Source of the DNA: Chiloscyllium plagiosum | Taxonomy: Eukaryota | Assembly: GCF_004010195.1 (NCBI RefSeq) | Contig: NC_057719.1 | Span: 38,825,733-38,873,830 of the forward strand | Direction: 5' to 3' | DNA length: 48,098 bases | Shown: positions 8,483 through 45,753 of the stretch, in pieces | Layout of the letters: every line of letters begins with the position of its first letter | Position numbering within the stretch: the stretch's first letter is position 1 | The notes under the pieces: generated by a model | The model's input: the letters and a program-made list of their open reading frames with translations, nothing else | Told to the model about the DNA's origin: nothing | The model's database searches: none | Position numbers and translations under genes: made by a program

Positions 8483-8717
8483 TGCAGTGATTGTAAGAAG
8501 GTCAGCCAACTGGACATTATAGAATATGAATTACATGATAGGGGCTGTTAACCTGAACCAATCAGGGAGCCCTGACTGACAGACGAAAAGAGCAGTATCA
8601 GAGATACTGTGATTCTGAGTGCTGACTCTGAAGAGGCAGCACAAATGTCAAGAACTATTCATGTGTAAGTAACTGATGACTTGGTGATGGGATACAGGCC
8701 ATCTGTGGATTACTTAA
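8483..8717 (+). repeat. 5' LTR of Gypsy element
   Basis: Starts TG. Shares CCAATCAGGGAGCCCTG, GCTGACTCTGAAGAGGCAG and TGACTTGGTGA with 13483-13715. Confidence 0.88.
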
Positions 8718-13482: not shown

Positions 13483-13715
13483 TATGGTGATTGTAATCAG
13501 GTCAGCCAAGTGAACCTCGTATGAAATAAGTTTCCTGATTGGGGATGTTAATCTGACCCAATCAGGGAGCCCTGGCTGACAGATTAAAAAAAAGATGAGT
13601 GCCAGAGATACTGACATCCTGAGAGCTGACTCTGAAGAGGCAGTATTAAAGCCAAGGGCTATTCATGTGTATATAAAGGGTGACTTGGTGACAGGATACT
13701 AGCAAAGTTATTTCA
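13483..13715 (+). repeat. 3' LTR of Gypsy element
   Basis: Direct repeat of 8483-8717. Ends TTATTTCA followed by TSD GAAAG, and is preceded by AGGAGGACAGG. Confidence 0.9.
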
Positions 13716-24675: not shown

Positions 24676-26335
24676 TAAGAGTTAACAGATTATTGGACTA
24701 TAACCTGGTGTCGTGTGATTTTTAACTTTGTCCATCCCAGTCCAACACTGGCATTTCCTCATCATGACATTTAGCCTGGCTGTTTAACCTATTGTGTGCA
24801 CCTTTGTTTGTTGTTGCTTTCATGGTGTTAGTATGAAATGGATGCATTCCAAAGTACCTTGTAGCCTCAGGCTTTTTTGCAGAAGCAATTCTTGAAACAC
24901 CTCTGCAATCACACTGAAGTCTTAGTGTTTTGCTGGTTTGATCTTCCACAGATCATTGTGGAGTGATATCAGCGATTCCACATTAATTTTTTTCTGATGC
25001 AAACAAATATGCCATATCACATCACTTATCTAGTTTGAATAACTTTGTGTGGGTACTTTTCAAAAATATATTTAAGACATTTATATTAAAGGACCCATTC
25101 CAACATTAACAAAATAAAATTTGAATTCACAACCATACATCACTTGATAAATAGAAAGATAGATTGTCTTGGTGGTTCATGAAGATTTTGTAGCAAAATT
25201 AAAATTAAACACATAATTATATTCAGTTGGCGTCATTTTGCAAGGACATCAGGAGACAGTAACATTGACAGAAAGCGCAGCTGTTAATTTGCAGGTGTAA
25301 ATTATTCCTGGCCTTTGGTAAAAAGATATTTTAAATTTATCATAGTGTGTGACAGAATCATTTGTGCAATTTGTTTAAATGCTTTCATGAAGATTTTCTT
25401 AAAGCTTTGCATATATAATAAAAGAGCTAAAATGTATGATTAACCAAACTAACATATTAAATCTAAATGCAAATCAGAAATAGGAGACATTGAATCATAT
25501 TAGAGAAACAAGTCTTGATGAGTTATATAGATCAGTTCTATATAAGATTAAATGTGAACCATGTTTATGCAGCAGGTACACAAAATAGCATTAGGCACAA
25601 TTAAAATTTGGAAATAGAAATAATATAATATTTTAAAGAATAAACATATTCATTATTGGACATACTTACAATAACTGTAGAGTTGTGAATATCAAATTTA
25701 TGCACTGCAACATGATTGAAATGGGCTTTTTATTTTTCAAGGCAATTTACAATCTTTTATGATATTTAGCGCTATTATTGAAATAAAGTTCAATGTATTG
25801 GTGTTAATTTAACAGGATGTTGAAATACCAGTATTTTAATACAAAAGTCAAGAAAGTTTAAATAGTTGTTTTCATGTGCCATTATTCACACCAAGTTAAA
25901 GGAATATTCTATTTCCTTTTATGCCAAAGTATTGTACCAAATAATATTCATCCTGTTGAGAAGCAAAATGTGTGAGCAAAATGCTACATCCTTCTTAAGA
26001 TGACAACATTTTGACACCAGGTGAAAGAAATTGTCAGAGGTCTGATCAGATGCAGTGAAGAAAGTATATTCTAATAAATTCATGGATAATTTGAGCTTCT
26101 CCTACCCATTTAACCTCCAAAAATAAATAGATTTATAAATTAACCTGTTCTATTCCAAGAGATAGGTCTTTGGCTCATTTTCTGTGAATGCTTCGTCAGA
26201 ACAGTTTTTTTGGGAGCTTGTATTTTACCATTGCCTTTCCCTTTTCAGAGCAGTGTGGAATCGGGTCCGAAATCTACCTCAGCCTGAGTGGAATTTGAAC
26301 CCATGTTGCTGCCATTGATCTGAAATGTATGCTAG

Positions 26336-26459
26336 TGAAGTAACTGCACAGAAGCCTGTCACCAAATCACCCTTTACTTACATGTTCACAGTACATGGGC
26401 TCTGACATCAGCTCAAAGCCAGTCCATAGACTGAGGAGACCTTCTGAATCTCCTGTTTA
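26336..26459 (-). mobile_element. Partial Gypsy LTR (3' half) related to the LTRs at 8483 and 13483
   Basis: Minus strand ATAAACAGGAGATTCAGA...CATGTAAGTAAAGGGTGATTTGGTGACAGG..TCTGTGCAGTTACTTCA matches CATGTGTATATAAAGGGTGACTTGGTGACAGG..AGTTATTTCA (13664-13715). Confidence 0.75.
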
Positions 26460-27310
26460 TTTTTTTTTCTTTTTACAGCAGAAGCAGGTCCAGGTCTTAA
26501 TTTGGGTGAGCAGCAGTGGAGGCAGGCTCCAGGCAGCAAACAGCAAATGTCCCAGGTATGGATGGGGTCCAGACAGCAGCTGTGGAGACAGGCCTCAGGC
26601 AGGTGCAGCAGTTGAAACGGGCCCCCAGCACTAGGGTAGTGTTCAGCTGTGGGCCGGGCCCAGGCTGCAGCAGTAGAAGCAGGCCCAGGCAATCTCCTGT
26701 TTATTTTTTTTTATTAAACAATTCACAGTTTACAAAACAATTAACAATAACAGCTGTATACAGAGAAACAGCAATTTTACAAGGGAGAGGAGCAGCAAAG
26801 CCAGGCTCCAAATCCTACCATTCACCCTGTTTTCAGGGAAATGAAGTCAAACCTCAAATCCCAGTTTCAATCATTACAAAACAATAACAATGACATTTTG
26901 TACATACAAGACAGTCCAATTACATAAAAACAGTGCATACAATACAGACCCCCAGAAATTGAGAAGCGTCCCACATTCCGGCCACTCTAAGGTAGCCTGC
27001 CCCACACACCTTCCAGCTCTCGGTCCACCCCATGCCATATCTCCTGGTTTTTTTCCTAATAGAAGCCCTGATGCTTCTGTTTATTTTTTTTCCATGTTGT
27101 GTGTGTGCAGGTGTGAGACACAGTGAAAGACACAAGGTGTACAAATCTTTATTCAATTCCATCACCAGGAGGATCTCCTTTTATTTTTTGTTTTGGTTTG
27201 GTTTTTTTCTTCTTTTTTGGATCTCCTGTTTTTTTTTTTGCGTGGAGAATCCTGGAGTCTCCTGATTTTTTTTGTTTTTTCTTTTTTGGATCTCCTATTT
27301 ATTTTTTGTC
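26448..27310 (-). repeat. Array of eight ATCTCCTGTTTA+poly(T) units separating heterogeneous retroposed inserts
   Basis: Units at 26448, 26692, 27039, 27071, 27173, 27221, 27257 and 27290, each followed immediately by a T run (poly(A) on the minus strand). Confidence 0.8.
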
Positions 27311-27332
27311 TTTTTTTTCTTTTGTTCCCCCA

Positions 27333-27356
27333 CACTACCGCCTAACTGCGGTAGTG
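27333..27356 (-). other. 3'-terminal stem-loop of Tx1 element
   Basis: CACTACCGC-ctaact-GCGGTAGTG, a perfect 9-bp stem just before the A-rich tail. Confidence 0.6.
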
Positions 27357-27550
27357 CTTATTTTTTCCCCAGCACCCATGGTGTGTGTGTGCAGGTGTGA
27401 GACACAGTGAAAGACACAAAGTGCACCACTCTTTATTCAATTTCCACCACCAGGAATATAGGAAAACACCCGGGTGGCCAGTGACAAACACTGCCCTTCG
27501 CATCAAAGGGCAGTGCTGTGTGATCAAAACAGTGAAGGGGTGGGTGGGGA

Positions 27551-29785
27551 CTAAATCAAAATAGAGTTGGAGGGAGAAATGATGCACTCCACTCCCTGCG
27601 GCGCTCACCTCTCCCTGAACAACTCCAGGGTGTTGGTCGACGCCGCGTGCTCCTTCTCCAAGGACACCCGGGCTCTAACGTAACCGCGGAAGAGGGGCAG
27701 GCAGTCGGCCCTAACGACCCCCTCCACGGCCCGCTGCCTGGACCTGTTGATGGCCAGTTTGGCCAGGCCCAGGAGCAGACCCACGAGGAGGTCTTCAAAC
27801 CTGCCCTCCCTCCTCCGTACTGAGTGCCCGAAGATCAGGAGCGTGAGACTGAAGTGCAGCCAAAAACAGAGGAGAAGGTTTTTGAGAAAATCAAAAAGGG
27901 AGTGTAAATGCCCACACCCAATATACATGTGGTCCACGGACTCCACAGCGCCACAGAACAAGCAGTTGGGCTGGGAGTCCATGAACCACCGCAATCTGCG
28001 GTTGCAGGGGACTGCTGCGTGCAGCACACTCCACCCCAGATCCCCGAGGGAAAGGGGAAGGACTCCCGCGTGGATGTTGTCGTGTATCCTCCGGCCCAGT
28101 ACCATGTAGGACTGGCCCAGGTGAATCATGTGGGCCAGCACGGAAGCCAGGCGAGAAGACAACACCCTGGTGAAGATTTTGTAGTCCGTACTGAGGAGGG
28201 AGGCCGGACGCCAGTTCTTCAAAGAACGAAGGTCCCCCTTCTTTGGCAGCAGGAGGATGACTGCCCTGCGCCAAGAAAGGGGCAGCTCTCTGGCATTTAG
28301 ACACTCCACCAGGACCTGTGCGTAGTTGCTCCCCAGGACGTCCCAGAACGCCCTGAAGAACTCCACAGTCAGCCCGTCCAGCCCCGGAGTTTTGCCCCTT
28401 GAGAGCCGGTCGAGGGCGCCGGTCAGCTCCTCTAAGGTGACGGGAGCGTCGAGCCTTCCGGCGTCCTCCGGGCCGAGCTTCGGCAGGTCCTCCCACAGAA
28501 CTCTGCGAGCATCCTCGCTGGATGGATCCAGAGAGAACAGAGCCGTGTAATAGTTTCGGACGTGGGCCCTGATCCCCTCCGGACCCGAGATGAGGGACCC
28601 GTCGTCGGCCAGCAGCACAAGGAGCTGCTGACGGGTGCCACGCCTTTTTTCCAGCGAGTAGAAGAAGGGGGAGCTGCGGTCCAGGTCCTGGAGGAGCTGG
28701 ATCCGCGACCTCACCTATGTGCCCCGAGCCCCGACGAGCTGCAGGTCCCGGAGCGCGGCCTTCTTCTCTTCGTACGCCCCGCGCAGGGCTGGGTCCACAT
28801 CGGGCTGACCGAGGCGTGACTCCAGGTCGAGCATCTCCCTCTCCAACACCCCGATCCTGGATTTCCACCTCTTCATCGACCCCCTTGCGTACTCCTGACA
28901 GAAGACGCGGACGTGAGCCTTGCCCACGTCCCACTATAGCCTCAGGGAGGGGAAGCTTCCCCCGCTTCCTTCTCCAGCTGGCCCAGAAATGAAGAAACGA
29001 GTCCTGGAACCCCTCGTCCTCCAGCAGCAGGTTGTTAAAGTGCCAGTACGCGGAGCCGAGCCTGGCGCCGAACAAAGGAGTTCCGCCCACACCAGGTGAT
29101 GGTCCGTGCACGACACCTGCTGCGTGGAGGCCTTCGGAAAACAGGTGGCGTACGCCCGTGAAACGTACAGGTGGTCGATTCTGGACGCTCTGAGCCCAGG
29201 CCTCACGAAGGTGAAGGCGATGGAGTCGGGATGGAGATTCCGCCAGACGTCCACCAGGTCAAAGGACTTGACCAAGTCCTCCAACCTCCTCCCCGACACC
29301 CAACCGGTGTGGGCACCACCATGGTCCCTGCCCTCGAGGACGCAGTTAAAATCTCCCCGGAGGACAACGCACTGGTTCTCGTCGATGGAGGCGAGATGAG
29401 CGGACACTTCTCCGAAGAAGCTCGCTTGCCTCTGCCCGGCCGGTGGGAGCGTAGACGTTCACCAAGTGAAGCACCGTGCCCCCCAGCCGAACCATCAGGT
29501 GAAGCAAACGGCCTGACATGGGCTCCCTGACCCCCAAGATCTCTGGCTGAAAATGCTGGGCCAGCAAGATAGCCACCCCGCCAGATCTGCGGGTGAGGTG
29601 ACTCATGTAGACCCCCCTCCGCCTCGCTACTCGAGGAGCCAGGTGGCTTCATCTCCTGGGGTAGTGTGGGTTTCTTGCAGGAAGCACACCACATACTTCC
29701 CGTCCCGAAGGACCGAGAGGCTCTGGAATCTGCGCTGTGACTCCCTGCTGCCGTTGATGTTGAGGCTGGCTATAGTTGTCTCCAT
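27551..29785 (-). pseudogene. Tx1 ORF2 (APE endonuclease-RT-CCHC), frameshifted, RT core deleted at ~28070
   Basis: METTIASLNING..FLQETH; SGGVAIL; NVYAP; GDFNC; SRIDHLY; TDH; KTPGLDGLTVEFF; LLPKKGDLRSLKNWRPASLLSTDYKI; RIHDNIH joined directly to AGVLP; CLFCGAVESVDHMYIGC. Confidence 0.92.
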
Positions 29786-30859
29786 GTCAGAAGCATTGTG
29801 CAACCACCACCAGTACAGTTAAAAAAACCAAATACATTTACTGGGAGGATGAGGGAGGGGCACAGAAGTCCCTCGCCCTCACCAGAAGTGCCACTTGGGA
29901 GGCTGCATGAGTGCCAGGCCATGTACTCGGCAGTGGTCTTCCGCCAGGATCAACTGGGCCAAATGTTCCGGACTACTGGTCAGTCCGTGGCGGGTGGACT
30001 CTCTGCCGGAGGAGTTACGGGGGTTCAGCTGGAGTACCACCCATCTCCTCTACCTGGGGGTCTACCTCAGCCCGGCTGAGGAATCCTGGCCGGCCCACTG
30101 GCAGGAGCTGGAGGCCAAAGCCTCGGCTCGCCTAGGCCGCTGGTCAGGACTGCTCCCAGTGCTATCTTACAGGAGTCGAGTGCTGGTCATAAACCAGCTG
30201 GTGGCCGCCATGCTGTGGTACCGGCTGGTCACTTTGGTCCCTACTCCTGGCTTTGTCGCTGACATCCAGAGAACGTTGGTCGATTTCTTCTGGGACAAAA
30301 AGATGCACTGGGTCACCGCGCAGGTTCTGAGTCTCCCTATTGAGGAGGGCGGTCAGTCGCTGGTGTGCGTCCGCACCCAGGTCGCGACGTTCCGTCTTCA
30401 GACCTTGTGGCGATACCTTTACGTCGAGCCTCCTCCTAGGTGGTGTGCCCTGGCAACCTATTTTTTCCGCCAGGTGCGTAACCTCAACTACGACACGCAG
30501 CTCCTGTTCGTCAACCGTGTCGGTTTGGAGGTCGCCCTCAAGACGTTGCCTGTCTTTTACCAGGACCTGATCACTGTCTGGAACATGGTCGAATCGCGTC
30601 GCGCCTACCCTCCGGCTGGAGTAGTGGCTGTCGTCAGGGAGCCGTTGCTCAGGAATCTGCACCTCCGTACTCGCGGGTTCGAGTGGCTGTCGGAGGGGAG
30701 GGCCGCGGCGGCGAGGGTGACCAGGGTCGGGGACGTGCTGGGTGCCGGGGGCCTGGGCTGGACGCTGCCGCAGGACATAGCAGGCAGGGCAGCGGTAGAC
30801 GTCCAGTACGTGGCCACCGCCATCCGACGCCTCAAAACGGCGGTGCTCGGACCCGACGT

Positions 30860-30968
30860 ACCAGGATTCCCTTAGTAGCTGCGAGTGAACAGGGAAAAGC
30901 CCAGCGCCGAATCCCCGCTCACCTGACGGGCGAGGGAAATGTGGCGTATAGAAGCGCTTTCTCTGACG
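30860..30968 (+). rRNA. 28S rRNA 5'-region fragment (dispersed, non-functional copy), truncated by assembly gap
   Basis: ACCAGGATTCCCTTAGTAGCTGCGAGTGAACAGGGAAAAGCCCAGCGCCGAATCCCCGC...GGGAAATGTGGCGTA matches the conserved vertebrate 28S segment ACCAGGATTCCCTCAGTAACGGCGAGTGAACAGGGAAGAGCCCAGCGCCGAATCCCCGC...ATGTGGCGTA. Confidence 0.88.
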
Positions 30969-31262
30969 NNNNNNNNNNNNNNNNNNNNNNNNNNNNNNNN
31001 NNNNNNNNNNNNNNNNNNNNNNNNNNNNNNNNNNNNNNNNNNNNNNNNNNNNNNNNNNNNNNNNNNNNNNNNNNNNNNNNNNNNNNNNNNNNNNNNNNNN
31101 NNNNNNNNNNNNNNNNNNNNNNNNNNNNNNNNNNNNNNNNNNNNNNNNNNNNNNNNNNNNNNNNNNNNNNNNNNNNNNNNNNNNNNNNNNNNNNNNNNNN
31201 NNNNNNNNNNNNNNNNNNNNNNNNNNNNNNNNNNNNNNNNNNNNNNNNNNNNNNNNNNNNNN
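30969..31262. other. Assembly gap (N run)
   Basis: Run of N. Confidence 1.
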
Positions 31263-32162
31263 GGCCTGGCCAAACTGGCCATTAACAGGTCCAGGCAGCG
31301 GGCCGTGGAGGGGGTCGTTAGGGCCGACTGCCTGCCCCTCTTCCGCGGTTACATTAGGGCCCGGGTGTCCTTGGAGAAGGAGCACGCGGTGTCGACCAAC
31401 TCCCTGGAGTTGTTCAGGGAGAGATGGGCGCCGCAGGGAGTGGAGTGCATTATTTCTCCCTCCAACTCTATTTTGATTTAGTCCCTACCCTTCCCCTCAC
31501 TGTTTTGATCACACAGCACTGCCCTTTGATGTCACTGGCCACCCGGGTGTTTTCCTATCTTCCTGGTGGTGGAACTTGAATAAAGATTCATGCACTTTGT
31601 GTCTCTCACTGTGTCTCATACCTGCACACACACACACCATGGGTGCTCGAAGAGAAGAGCCTACAGTGCCTCTTGACTGTCCTACCCAAACCCCCAGGGG
31701 CTACAGCAGGGCCTCCTGCTGCCTCGATTCCTCCCCGATCCTGGATTTCCGCCTCTTCGTCGACCCCCTCGCGTACTCCTGACAGAAGACGCGGACGTGA
31801 GCCTTGCCCACGTCCCACCATAGCCTCAGGGAGGGGAAGCTTCCCCGCTTCCTTCTCCAGCCGGCCCAGAAATGACGAAACGAGTCTCGGAACCCCTCGT
31901 CCTCCAGCAGCAGGTTGTTAAAGATCCAGTACGTGGAGCCGAGCCTGGCGTCGAACGGAAAGAGTTCTGCACACACCAGGTGATGGTCCGCGCACGACAC
32001 CTGCCGTGTGGAGGCCCTCGGTAAACAGGAGGCGTACGCCCGCGAAACGTACAGGTGGTCAATTCTGGACGCTCCGACCCCAGGCCTCACAAAGGTGAAG
32101 ACGATGGAGTCGGGATGGAGATTCCGCCAGACGTCCACCAGGTTGAAGGACTTGACCAAGTC

Positions 32163-33194
32163 TTGTTGCAGCCCCAGGGGCTTCTGCATCGGGGTAGGGG
32201 GTGGATGTGGGGTCAGTGGGGCCAGGATCAGGTACTAGTTTGGGGGTCAGGGTTTCCGCGCTGGGGCGACACTGGCACGGCCACAGAGGCATTGTCGTGC
32301 CGGGGCGGGGCAGGTCGTGGGCTAGGTGTTGAGGACAGAGATAGGGTGGTCTCCCTGTGGGCGGGCCTGACGCGCCGCGTCTTCCTGAGCGCCTTCTGGC
32401 CGGTCGGACGCTCACCCCACTCCCCGCCAGAGGCTGGAACATTGGAAGCCTCCGGCTTAGCCCCCGGTGCTGGGGCTTGTGGTGTTGACTTCAGGGGAGG
32501 GGGAGTGGGTGCAGTGGCGCCACCCTCAGCCGTTGGTGTGGGCTGGCCAGCCTTCTGTGTGGGGCAGTCTTTTCTAATGTGCCCCACCTCGCGGCACAGG
32601 TGGCACCGCACGCCATCCAGAAGGCGCAGTAGGCCGCGCCTCGTGGAGGAGGGTGAAAGAGCCCTCGGTGACCTCCTCCAGGGCCAGGCAAATGAACACC
32701 TGGCGTCGGAAGGAGTATACGTGTCGGAGGACGGGGTCCTTAAGACTGAGCAGGAGCGGTTGGACACCCGACTGGATCTCCCCCAGGTTGGTGAGGTGGG
32801 GGAGAAGGTGCTCGCTGGCAATGAAGGGCGGGACGTTGGAGATCACGACCCTCTGGGCCGTAACCTCCAGAGGGTCGATGGGCAGATGTGTCCTGCCCAC
32901 AGTGAGCCCCCTCTCCACGGCCAGGTGGACCGCCTGCTCGGTCCTCAGCAAAAAGACGGCCTTCTCGTACATCCGGGCCGCGGCGACGATGGCCAGTGGG
33001 CCGACCACACTAGCCATGGCCTAGCTGCAGGCCTCGATGGTCATATTGGGGTGGGGATAGGCCTTGACCCCTAGGCGTTTAGTTAGGTGCCTGAAGGGGG
33101 TTGCGGTTGCGGCCGGGGATGGGACAGCCGAGCCTGAGGCAGCGGCTACCCCGGCATAGGTGCGGCTGGGCCCTGCGACCTTTGGGCTCGCCAT
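32163..33194 (-). pseudogene. Tx1 ORF1 (gag-like nucleic-acid-binding protein with CCHC knuckle)
   Basis: MASPKVAG..AIVAAARMYEKAVF..GLTV..PLEVTAQRVVISNVPPFI..RHVYSFRRQVF; CHLCREVGHIRKDC (CX2CX4HX4C). In-frame TAG at 33021-33023 and a frameshift. Confidence 0.88.
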
Positions 33195-33658
33195 ACTCTG
33201 CTGCTGGATGTTGGTAGGCCCCAGGTAGCAGCAGTGGAGGTGTGGCAATGAAGGGCGGGACGTTGGAGATCACGACCCTCTGGGCCGTAACCTCCAGAGG
33301 GTCGACGGGCAAATGTGTCCCGCCCACAGCGAGCCCCCTCTCCACGGCCAGGTGGACCGCCTGCTCGGTCCTCAGGAAAAAGACGGCCTTCTCGTACATC
33401 CGGGCCGCGGCGACGATGGCCAGTGGGCCGACCACACTAGCCATGGCCTTGCTGCAGGCCTCGATGGTCATATAGGGGTGGGGATAGGCCTTGACCCCTA
33501 GGCGTTTAGTTAGGTGCCTGAAGGGGGTTGCGGTTGCGGCCGGGGATGGGACAGCCGAGCCTGAGGCAGCGGCTACCCCGGCATGGGCCCTGCGACCTTT
33601 GGGCTCGCCATACTCTGCTGCTGGATGTTGGTAGGCCCCAGGTAGCAGCAGTGGAGGT
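32815..33658 (-). repeat. ~425-bp tandem duplication of Tx1 5'UTR/ORF1 start
   Basis: 32815-33241 vs 33243-33658, with a few substitutions and a 10-bp indel. Confidence 0.9.
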
Positions 33659-33734
33659 GGGCCTCTGGCAGCAGCAGTGGCGGAAGTCCTCGGGAGGTAC
33701 CCAAGGCGAGTCCCAGGCAGCAATGGTGGAGACC

Positions 33735-33845
33735 TTTTTAGACATTCTCTAATCAATGTGTTCAGAAATGTTATGACACACCTCTGGGGACTTGAACCCA
33801 AGCCTCCTGATTCCGAGGTGGGCCACTGTACCACAAGAGCCCTCA
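33735..33845 (-). mobile_element. Short tRNA-derived SINE
   Basis: Minus strand AGGGCTCTTGTGGTACAGTGG...GGGTTCAAGTCCCCAGAGGTGTG...TTGATTAG; same family as 7972-8085. Confidence 0.7.
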
Positions 33846-44721: not shown

Positions 44722-45753
44722 CTGAAAATGTGTTGCTGGAAAAGCGCAGCAGGTCAGGCAGCATCCAAGGAGCAGGAGAATCGACGTTTCTGCATGAGCC
44801 CTTCTTCAGGAATGAGGAAAGTGTGCCAAGCAGGCTAAGATAAAAGGTAGGGAGGAGGGACTTGGGGGAGGGGTGTTGGAAATGCGATAGGTGGAAGGAG
44901 GTTAAGGTGAGGGTGATAAGGTGAGNNNNNNNNNNNNNNNNNNNNNNNNNNNNNNNNNNNNNNNNNNNNNNNNNNNNNNNNNNNNNNNNNNNNNNNNNNN
45001 NNNNNNNNNNNNNNNNNNNNNNNNNNNNNNNNNNNNNNNNNNNNNNNNNNNNNNNNNNNNNNNNNNNNNNNNNNNNNNNNNNNNNNNNNNNNNNNNNNNN
45101 NNNNNNNNNNNNNNNNNNNNNNNNNNNNNNNNNNNNNNNNNNNNNNNNNNNNNNNNNNNNNNNNNNNNNNNNNNNNNNNNNNNNNNNNNNNNNNNNNNNN
45201 NNNNNNNNNNNNNNNNNNNNNNNNNNNNNNNNNNNNNNNNNNNNNNNNNNNNNNNNNNNNNNNNNNNNNNNNNNNNNNNNNNNNNNNNNNNNNNNNNNNN
45301 NNNNNNNNNNNNNNNNNNNNNNNNNNNNNNNNNNNNNNNNNNNNNNNNNNNNNNNNNNNNNNNNNNNNNNNNNNNNNNNNNNNNNNNNNNNNNNNNNNNN
45401 NNNNNNNNNNNNNNNNNNNNNNNNNNNNNNNNNNNNNNNNNNNNNNNNNNNNNNNNNNNNNNNNNNNNNNNNNNNNNNNNNNNNNNNNNNNNNNNNNNNN
45501 NNNNNNNNNNNNNNNNNNNNNNNNNNNNNNNNNNNNNNNNNNNNNNNNNNNNNNNNNNNNNNNNNNNNNNNNNNNNNNNNNNNNNNNNNNNNNNNNNNNN
45601 GGTCGGTTTATAGTAAATGTCCGTGTTGATTCGGTCGCCTGAGATAGAAATGGAGAGGTCTAGGAAGGGGAGGGAGGAGTCTGAGACGGTCCAGATAAAT
45701 TTGAGGTCGGGGTGGAAGGTGTTAGTAAAGTGGATGAACTGTTCAACCTCCTC
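44722..45753 (-). mobile_element. Young 5'-truncated Penelope-like element (RT thumb region + terminus; middle in gap)
   Basis: EVEQFIHFTNTFHPDLKFIWTVSDSSLPFLDLSISISGDRINTDIYYKPT (PLE LPFLD/YxKPT motifs). Perfect 10-bp TSD ATGGACTGAA (44712-44721 / 45754-45763). Hammerhead core CTGAAGA..GAAACGTC at 44779-44813. Confidence 0.92.
44926..45600. other. Assembly gap (N run)
   Basis: Run of N. Confidence 1.

Follow-up and report, generated by a model that had tools for sequence, protein, structure and literature searches.

Tx1-clade LINEs that insert into LTR retrotransposons, Tx1-8_Crp and Tx1-4_AMi, were described by Kojima (2015, PMC4494074), and the accessible part of that report also reads crocodilian tandem SINEU-3 copies around a target site duplication (TSD) as sequential insertions and derives the 5' extension of one SINEU-2 subfamily from its target. 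How LINE 5' ends are attached and the second strand is made are still open questions (PMC6895275, PMC2881922). For R2, 5' joining by annealing of the cDNA to upstream target (PMC6895275) and template jumping (PMC11371274) are described, and in TART a subterminal part of the 3' UTR recurs as a direct repeat at the 5' end, a jump of the enzyme from one repeat to the other having been proposed (PMC1636488); HeT-A is transcribed from its upstream neighbour (PMC5537684). McGurk and Barbash (10.1101/158386) describe tandems formed by double insertion at a preserved site, including R1 arrays, and take distinct 5' truncations as the mark of independence, and in templated L1 insertions the cDNA can occasionally switch to nearby DNA and copy less than 250 bp of it (10.1101/2024.08.27.596794). 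All of these sources are cited here for what their accessible portions state.

The locus under study lies in a 48,098-nucleotide stretch of DNA (the window) from an animal genome assembly of 3.56 Gb with many gaps. It contains eight copies of a 12-mer motif with 0–3 mismatches, each directly followed by a T-rich run, and has the following features (window coordinates):

26336..26460, minus strand (LTR sense): U5/R-side half of the LTR, an 84% match to positions 1–134 of the 232-bp solo LTR L037, ending at the TATA box
26448..26459, plus strand: target motif 1, exact, native to the LTR and overlapping its minus-strand TATA box; the insertion point is immediately to its right
26474..26691, minus strand: insert 1, a T run joined to a piece of GC-rich repeated 5' UTR from a Tx1 subfamily; the oldest array position
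26692..26703, plus strand: target motif 2, exact, read-supported
26712..27038, minus strand: insert 2, 3'-terminal piece of the older element family B, which uses the same site
27039..27071, plus strand: motif 3 (2 mismatches), T run and short stub
27072..27172, minus strand: block of motif 4 (start 27072, 3 mismatches), T run and 3'-truncated Tx1 piece (positions 50–129 from the element 3' end, 91% to the long copy)
27173..27325, plus strand: motifs 5–8 with T-rich stubs (starts 27173, 27221, 27257 and 27290; 3, 1, 3 and 1 mismatches, respectively)
27326..33735, minus strand: long rearranged Tx1-clade copy (3' UTR, ORF2, inverted block, assembly gap, ORF1)

The preliminary description had listed eight 12-mers, each with a T run, and all are present, the fourth starting at 27072 where 27071 had been given. 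Sites with at most three mismatches and a T-rich follow number eight in the 1,030 bases of the array against five in the 81,146 other window positions (both strands). A plain two-mismatch search of the whole window gives 10 matches against a shuffle mean of 6.2, which is not significant, so the evidence lies in the clustering of the 12-mers. A GG dinucleotide precedes three of motifs 5–8, and bases 27194–27238 and 27263–27307 are 84% alike; these four motifs may therefore represent fewer than four events. Contigs from two independent sequencing runs (X2 and X1) agree with 26150–26711 with 0–1 differences, and a third run (X12), labelled as another organism, contains insert 1 plus the second motif; the read check left out 27174–27326, skipped as a repeat, and the whole array is spanned by no single piece. 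Simple slippage as the origin of the array is ruled out by the spacers, which are retroelement pieces. Elsewhere in the window an N-filled assembly gap occupies 44926–45600, and the long ORFs listed there are artefacts.

The LTR has TG...CA ends and, on the minus strand of the window, a TATA box and a poly(A) signal. At locus L036 a polypurine tract and an integrase-like tail directly adjoin it, and a polypurine tract and integrase tail also stand beside it at L225–L229. Matches to the rve domain adjoin the LTR at L229 (30.4 bits) and L226 (18.2 bits), both under the cut-off of 32.6, and the homologue P0008 has PF00665 together with PF17917, PF17919 and PF17921. The LTR and its integrase-like tail fit a putative Gypsy (Ty3) identity for the target. 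Of 13 solo LTRs examined for their own target duplication (4–6 bp expected), L035 has an exact 5-bp pair and several others a partial one, in copies that are about 15% diverged. Two older copies of the same LTR family lie in the window in opposite orientation at 13505–13699 and 8505–8695 (67–69% diverged), and at L050:1503-2903 an inverted pair of LTR halves flanks an inverted family B piece.

That the first 12-mer is native to the LTR, at a TATA-like position, as had been proposed, is confirmed by empty LTRs that carry the motif. The 29 best other LTR copies comprise 18 that are empty and 11 that are occupied at one common point (nine found by script and two by eye); the motif without an insert in those 18 rules out the 12-mer as the element's own 3' end, and Tx1 3' ends without the motif occur at L003, L010, L016 and L025. 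A clean 14-bp duplication flanks the insert at L040, and clean single insertions of this kind are also found at L032 and L135. Genome-wide there are 1,191 exact copies of the junction between motif and U3, and 174 cases of the exact motif followed by a T run and a young Tx1 3' end. The right (U3) half of the LTR was sought in the window and none was found, and a search with the U3 half of L037 matched only itself; with the other LTR half missing from the window, the last insert has no closing duplication.

By sequence, the long insert is a Tx1-clade LINE and a member of the target-specific Tx1 group. Its ORF2 encodes an APE endonuclease and a reverse transcriptase closest to Xenopus laevis Tx1L (YTX2_XENLA) in pairwise scores against Tx1L, L1 and R2, with 46% identity over 312 residues for the window copy and, for the copy at L221, where 746 codons run without a stop, 53% over 753 aligned residues; tblastn with residues 1–808 of Tx1L ORF2 gives 53–56% in L221, and human L1 ORF2p is far weaker (210 bits). 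The clade's hallmarks of poly(A) tail, 5' truncation and target duplication are present. ORF1 lies upstream of ORF2 and includes a zinc knuckle (zf-CCHC, 22.3 bits against a cut-off of 20.8, window 32228–32842). The copy has an internally deleted ORF2, an assembly gap at 30969–31262 and a break inside the 5' UTR repeats, and it has neither a leader (see below) nor a right LTR half. An inverted Tx1 block, consisting of the C-terminal part of ORF2 and then a tailless 3' UTR, lies around the gap (29853–30960 and 31263–31640), and two segments are repeated (28809–29278 again at 31693–32162, and 32816–33242 again at 33243–33659); twin priming, nested copies or misassembly could account for these. 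Two strong hairpins (z −2.8) are predicted in the 3' UTR (27326–27520), and the first, at the extreme 3' end, may be a candidate protein-binding signal.

The Tx1 family is transcribed: 2% of one RNA run gave 1,881 reads with a peak over the 3' UTR, from a source copy that could be any. No RNA data set was listed as containing this exact stretch. Reads have poly(T) loose ends at 27341, 27361–27362 and 27417. Alternative polyadenylation as the chief source of 3'-truncated units is not supported, as their starts are scattered across positions 11–150 and do not clearly pile up below the AATAAA at 106.

The inserts had been ascribed to one Tx1 family, which fails in that a second, non-coding family and a 5' UTR piece are also present. 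The 5' UTR piece, insert 1, is 74–76% identical to the 5' UTR repeats of L176, and its sequence adjoins ORF1 at L092, L093, L099 and L101. Insert 2 belongs to family B, which is about 1.9 kb long; it had 2,338 candidate matches on a first look, at 84–89% identity. Family B gave no protein similarity, no similarity to Tx1L (ORF2) within it and, in a search of five loci for a ribozyme or RNA head, no Rfam match at E values up to 0.1; no similarity was seen between its 3' end and the Tx1 tail. Array units that are neither Tx1 nor B, placed after T runs or nested, occur at L027:1370-1470, L147 and L156 (a tRNA-like/SINE-like piece and other repeats).

A same-strand LTR piece accompanies 15 of the 29 best Tx1 loci and 25 of the 29 best family B loci, and the motif (at most two mismatches) stands directly after the tail in 13/29 and 17/29, respectively, where chance would give 0.034; these are best-hit loci, not a random sample, and the counts are limited to the fetched DNA. 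For both families one target accounts for more than 20% of the flanks of best-hit loci, the share named in Kojima's rule. The other 14 of the 29 young Tx1 copies have no LTR in the fetched DNA, four of them on short contigs, which counts against the reading favoured below. The preliminary description had a Tx1 family targeting this LTR motif, and what stands is a preference for one point in one orientation; strict specificity does not, an LTR piece being present for only 15 of 29 young copies. Its further claim that insertion regenerates the site holds, given the clean duplication at L040 and the 11 of 29 LTR copies occupied at that point. The suggestion that such a target class was new is overtaken by Tx1-8_Crp and Tx1-4_AMi and by the tandem SINEU-3 described around a TSD (accessible text of PMC4494074). 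Site targeting and regeneration are real, and of an already known kind. We note that the array at L146 (G000:C3:77891040-77894088) repeats a different 13-mer inside a Tx1 copy and not the LTR motif, so array building can do without the LTR.

For statistics on array structure, 300 Tx1 3'-region units at 81 loci were collected from four best-hit searches and one pattern search, after dropping the short versions of 20 re-fetched loci, seven duplicates and units shorter than 35 nt; units at a locus edge or beyond position 745 were excluded from counts of ends, and positions are counted from the element 3' end of the window copy. The loci are best hits, and so a biased sample, from a gapped assembly with gaps inside most long copies, and the diagnostic sites and pairs used below are not independent, so P values overstate significance.

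The arrays are polarised. In 59 arrays the young-allele index of the rightmost (U3-side) unit is higher than that of the leftmost in 44, lower in 14 and tied in one, and over 261 units the index correlates with array position (rho 0.50). The load of private mutations is lower in the U3-side unit in 37 arrays, higher in 13 and tied in one. The sign is the same in each of three subsets, including loci that were not picked for a young copy (11 against 4). The window conforms to this order: from the left it has the old 5' UTR piece, then family B, in the middle the 91% piece, and at the right the long copy. The 14 of 59 arrays in which the polarity is reversed count against the favoured reading. 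This age gradient suggests that arrays mainly grow at the U3 side, probably because after duplication the U3-side motif alone keeps both flanks of the nick. The array had been called a chronological record of insertions, and an age order does exist as a statistical tendency; a strictly chronological one does not.

The units of an array also share their 5' ends. Of 268 units at 60 multi-unit loci, 151 have a 5' end that recurs, to within 2 nt, in at least one other unit at their locus, against a mean of 25.6 and a maximum of 48 in shuffles, and the ends differ between loci. Shared ends occur at 43 of the 60 loci, at 35 of them between units at least 3% apart (shuffles: mean 10.3, maximum 18), and in 22 of 31 arrays an earlier end comes back in the unit that abuts U3. 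When complete units with the same end are paired, 23 of 36 pairs differ at four or more of 52 subfamily-diagnostic sites; four, a point against the favoured reading, look like plain duplicates. Disagreement at diagnostic sites between nearest same-end pairs is 0.07 within 15 nt of the end, 0.11–0.14 at 15–50 nt and 0.23–0.26 beyond 150 nt (cross-locus control, 0.26–0.37), and sites with an old allele in the left unit have it in the right unit too in 101 of 131 cases up to 40 nt from the end, against 173 of 352 beyond 100 nt. Only the last ~40 bases follow the resident copy, and the bodies carry different subfamily letters. The tails of same-end pairs are no closer than those of strangers (median 17 against 16 of 30), and of the 157 same-end pairs 139 also agree in their motif variant, as compared with 88 of 354. 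Other units lie between same-end partners in 30 of 94 cases; the ends at L156, for example, run 346, 117, 346, 117, 346. A clear case is L035, whose last unit is young in its 3' part and has, as 5' part and end, the old ones found in its neighbours. Same-end units are mostly not duplicates; the pattern is rather that of a new cDNA which would pair with a resident copy and then extend through the resident's end and motif. Three observations count against the favoured reading: same-end pairs have few truly private alleles in common (0.0045 per base over the first 25 nt), end sharing inside the window's own array amounts to two shared bases only, and 3'-truncated units lie to the left of a same-end full unit in 23 cases and to the right in nine, which annealing to residents alone does not explain.

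Complete Tx1 copies often begin with a leader, a copy of the element's own 3' region placed before the 5' UTR in sense direction, which was found in 29 of the 30 best loci for the Tx1 5' UTR (picked regardless of upstream content; two pairs are the same locus). It starts at position 132–138, its end is variable and it is usually closed by the motif; the leader of L194 matches its own 3' part at 93% (113/121), an imperfect repeat. The leader junction is marked by a fixed base change and occurs in exact form at least 100 times in the genome, and is therefore inherited; a count of 4,641 at one mismatch includes ordinary 3' UTRs and was not used. Later units have the leader's end in 8 of the 30 loci, and short 5' modules, not whole elements, occur inside arrays at L174, L182, L196 and L201. 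The left neighbours of 10 long copies are mostly hidden by assembly gaps, and five of the seven readable cases are without a left resident that has the leader's end, which counts against the favoured reading. In family B the leader is about 60 bases of LTR left of the nick plus the motif, present in three full-length copies (L075, L128 and L211, shortened in the last) and nine further pieces. The 5' end of each family thus corresponds to the sequence left of the nick in its usual target, an empty LTR for B and an occupied array for Tx1. At L059 and L101 there is a second 5' end of B-like type, with a leader matching another LTR subfamily, which suggests that a leader may have been captured more than once.

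Modules also travel between arrays. The local motif variant is carried by 82 of 113 internal units and a variant foreign to the locus by 31, and several of the latter trace elsewhere; the earlier idea that each 12-mer is the TSD of an independent insertion is, in that form, not supported. Foreign motifs are weakly commoner in 3'-truncated units (19/51 against 12/62, P 0.056). The junction at end 280 is local at L118, where it closes the leader and joins the U3 half, and it is found at seven other places, two of them perhaps one insertion assembled twice; at every recipient site a T run leads into a piece of variable length, after which come the donor motif, a second T run and an unrelated next unit. 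L118 and L204 (G000:C22:52095800-52110999) show two inverted Tx1 5' ends, each with a leader (ends 280 and ~740), and are the likely source of the end-280 modules. Among the loci compared, 5 of 22 distinct usable leader junctions are present at another locus; L176 matches a module in L119, and a complete unit at L221 ends with the leader junction of L196. For the recurring foreign junction at end 117 of L156 no donor was found elsewhere, the matches being two at L156 itself and one that is unrelated, again a point against the favoured reading. Units led by a T run start more than 10 nt inside the element in 74 of 226 cases. Donor RNAs probably contain leader and motif, and if the enzyme jumps between templates, one event may add several modules.

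The reading that we favour, with a probability of roughly two in three (about 0.68), combines serial target-primed reverse transcription (TPRT) at the U3-side motif, annealing of the cDNA to resident copies and template jumping. A Tx1-clade LINE would nick the plus strand just to the right of the motif at the LTR TATA box and reverse transcribe from its poly(A) tail, as Tx1 biology suggests; family B is non-autonomous and presumably mobilised by Tx1 proteins. The target duplication would rebuild the motif, and since the U3-side copy alone would have both nick flanks, growth would take place mainly there. The 5' junction would often be made by homology, the cDNA pairing with a resident of the same array and extending through its 5' end and motif, such that each event yields a new body and a new tail with an old end. 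Leaders look like long target duplications absorbed into the transcript, and could serve as annealing arms as upstream 28S does for R2. Template jumps by the reverse transcriptase would lay down several modules per event, including leader pieces with the motif of the donor locus. Under TPRT, annealing and template jumping together, some internal 12-mers would be imported and the order statistical, not strictly CRISPR-like; the window's array would be one such stack.

A simpler model, with independent random 5' truncations, one target duplication per 12-mer and strict chronology, draws on the clean 14-bp insertions, on the age gradient and on the local motif variants along the arrays; it meets shared 5' ends far in excess of chance, foreign motifs and modules seen at other loci, and T runs joined to internal pieces, and as a full account it is contradicted and very unlikely, remaining the first layer of the favoured explanation. 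If the arrays had instead grown by tandem duplication of DNA, through unequal exchange between target duplications followed by decay and gene conversion from young copies, near-identical pairs would be expected, and such pairs exist (units 2–3 of L035, end 100 at L119, end 204 at L156, and the first pair of L160 with five shared rare alleles and a duplicated LTR half); the accessible text of 10.1101/158386 has R1 dimers of Drosophila expanding by unequal exchange. Most complete same-end pairs nevertheless differ at four or more diagnostic sites and have no common tail, and conversion explains neither why units at the U3 side are young nor why ends alternate, each with a motif variant of its own (L156, L116 and L139), which makes this route unlikely.

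Concatemers made for the most part in one or a few events, with the reverse transcriptase copying RNAs of one donor, skipping between 3' region and leader in the manner of an LTR-like or TART-like strand transfer and using no resident DNA, would explain why leaders exist, why some loci share the leader's end with later units and why the unit at L221 ends as it does. Template jumping is demonstrated for R2 proteins (PMC11371274) and proposed for TART (PMC1636488), as far as the accessible texts go. Yet the leader does not include 16 of the 151 shared ends, which fall below position 132, and the motif of same-end units usually matches the local LTR; different subfamily letters and the age gradient argue that such units do not come from one RNA pool, and we consider this quite unlikely. 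That the arrays are collapsed or stitched repeats produced by assembly is hardly credible: gaps are frequent in these elements, and reads covered neither 27174–27326 nor the whole array, but insert 1 and the first two motifs are borne out by independent contigs, the units differ by 5–10%, and locus-specific motif variants match the flanking LTR. Serial TPRT with annealing to residents and template jumping can be carried one step further. Tx1 would then use its own earlier insertions as a homologous landing pad, with an RNA that starts at or before the motif, a direct repeat of the 3' region, locus-specific ends, promoter-side growth and RNA-borne exchange of modules, and family B would have done likewise with the empty LTR; we regard this extension as tentative, and somewhat more likely wrong than right.

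Joining by annealing has so far been shown mainly for R2. The arrays are many natural replicates in which borrowed length, donor and order can be read from the sequence for an APE-type LINE, which opens the strand-invasion model to tests by genomics and in a simple cell assay. When tandem copies have identical 5' ends, duplication is the usual reading; here such copies mostly are not duplicates, which bears on the dating of repeats. The ordered reloading of one site is of interest for RNA-templated insertion and molecular recording. If the landing-pad reading is true, an endonuclease-targeted LINE would have acquired an LTR-like strand-transfer architecture, and a natural position-ordered record of retrotransposition would exist at hundreds of loci, if not more.

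Likeness to CRISPR is limited to regeneration of the repeat and one-sided growth; the spacers here are retroelement pieces, and no cas genes were found among the eight window ORFs scanned. Polarity, shared ends and a self-derived leader in Tx1 were not found reported in the open-access literature searched. As with Tx1-Mar and SINEU-3 (Kojima 2015, PMC4494074), a LINE prefers a mobile element as target and a non-autonomous partner uses the same site; unlike here, the accessible description of those systems gives no LTR position, polarity, shared 5' ends or leader from the element's own 3' region. Tx1L likewise inserts site-specifically into another mobile element (PMC4494074, accessible text), in its case the DNA transposon Tx1D and not an LTR.

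As R2 is described in the sources consulted, cDNA can pair with the target where the RNA retains target sequence at its 5' end, a template jump can make a duplication and copying can be serial, all of which resembles what is proposed here; unlike here, the endonuclease is of another class, the target is rDNA, the 5' end is made by a ribozyme, for which Rfam gave no match in the present elements, and the homology is to host rDNA and not to earlier copies. TART and HeT-A, found at Drosophila telomeres, are LINEs of the Jockey clade. As they are described, their polarised head-to-tail arrays resemble these, and a TART-like 5' repeat of the subterminal 3' region is what was found at 29 of 30 loci; in contrast to them, which add to telomeres and make no target duplication, the present arrays are interstitial with target duplications and a Tx1-like ORF2, and the repeat varies in length by locus and ends in the motif. 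The arrays are like the described R1 arrays in having target duplications between tandem copies, and unlike the R1 and L1 cases reported, shared ends are the majority state. One-sided growth, inherited 5' ends, leaders and module traffic, patterns seen at the level of sequence for which the mechanism above would account, go beyond known targeting. The system works partly like R2 and partly like TART, and it belongs to neither.
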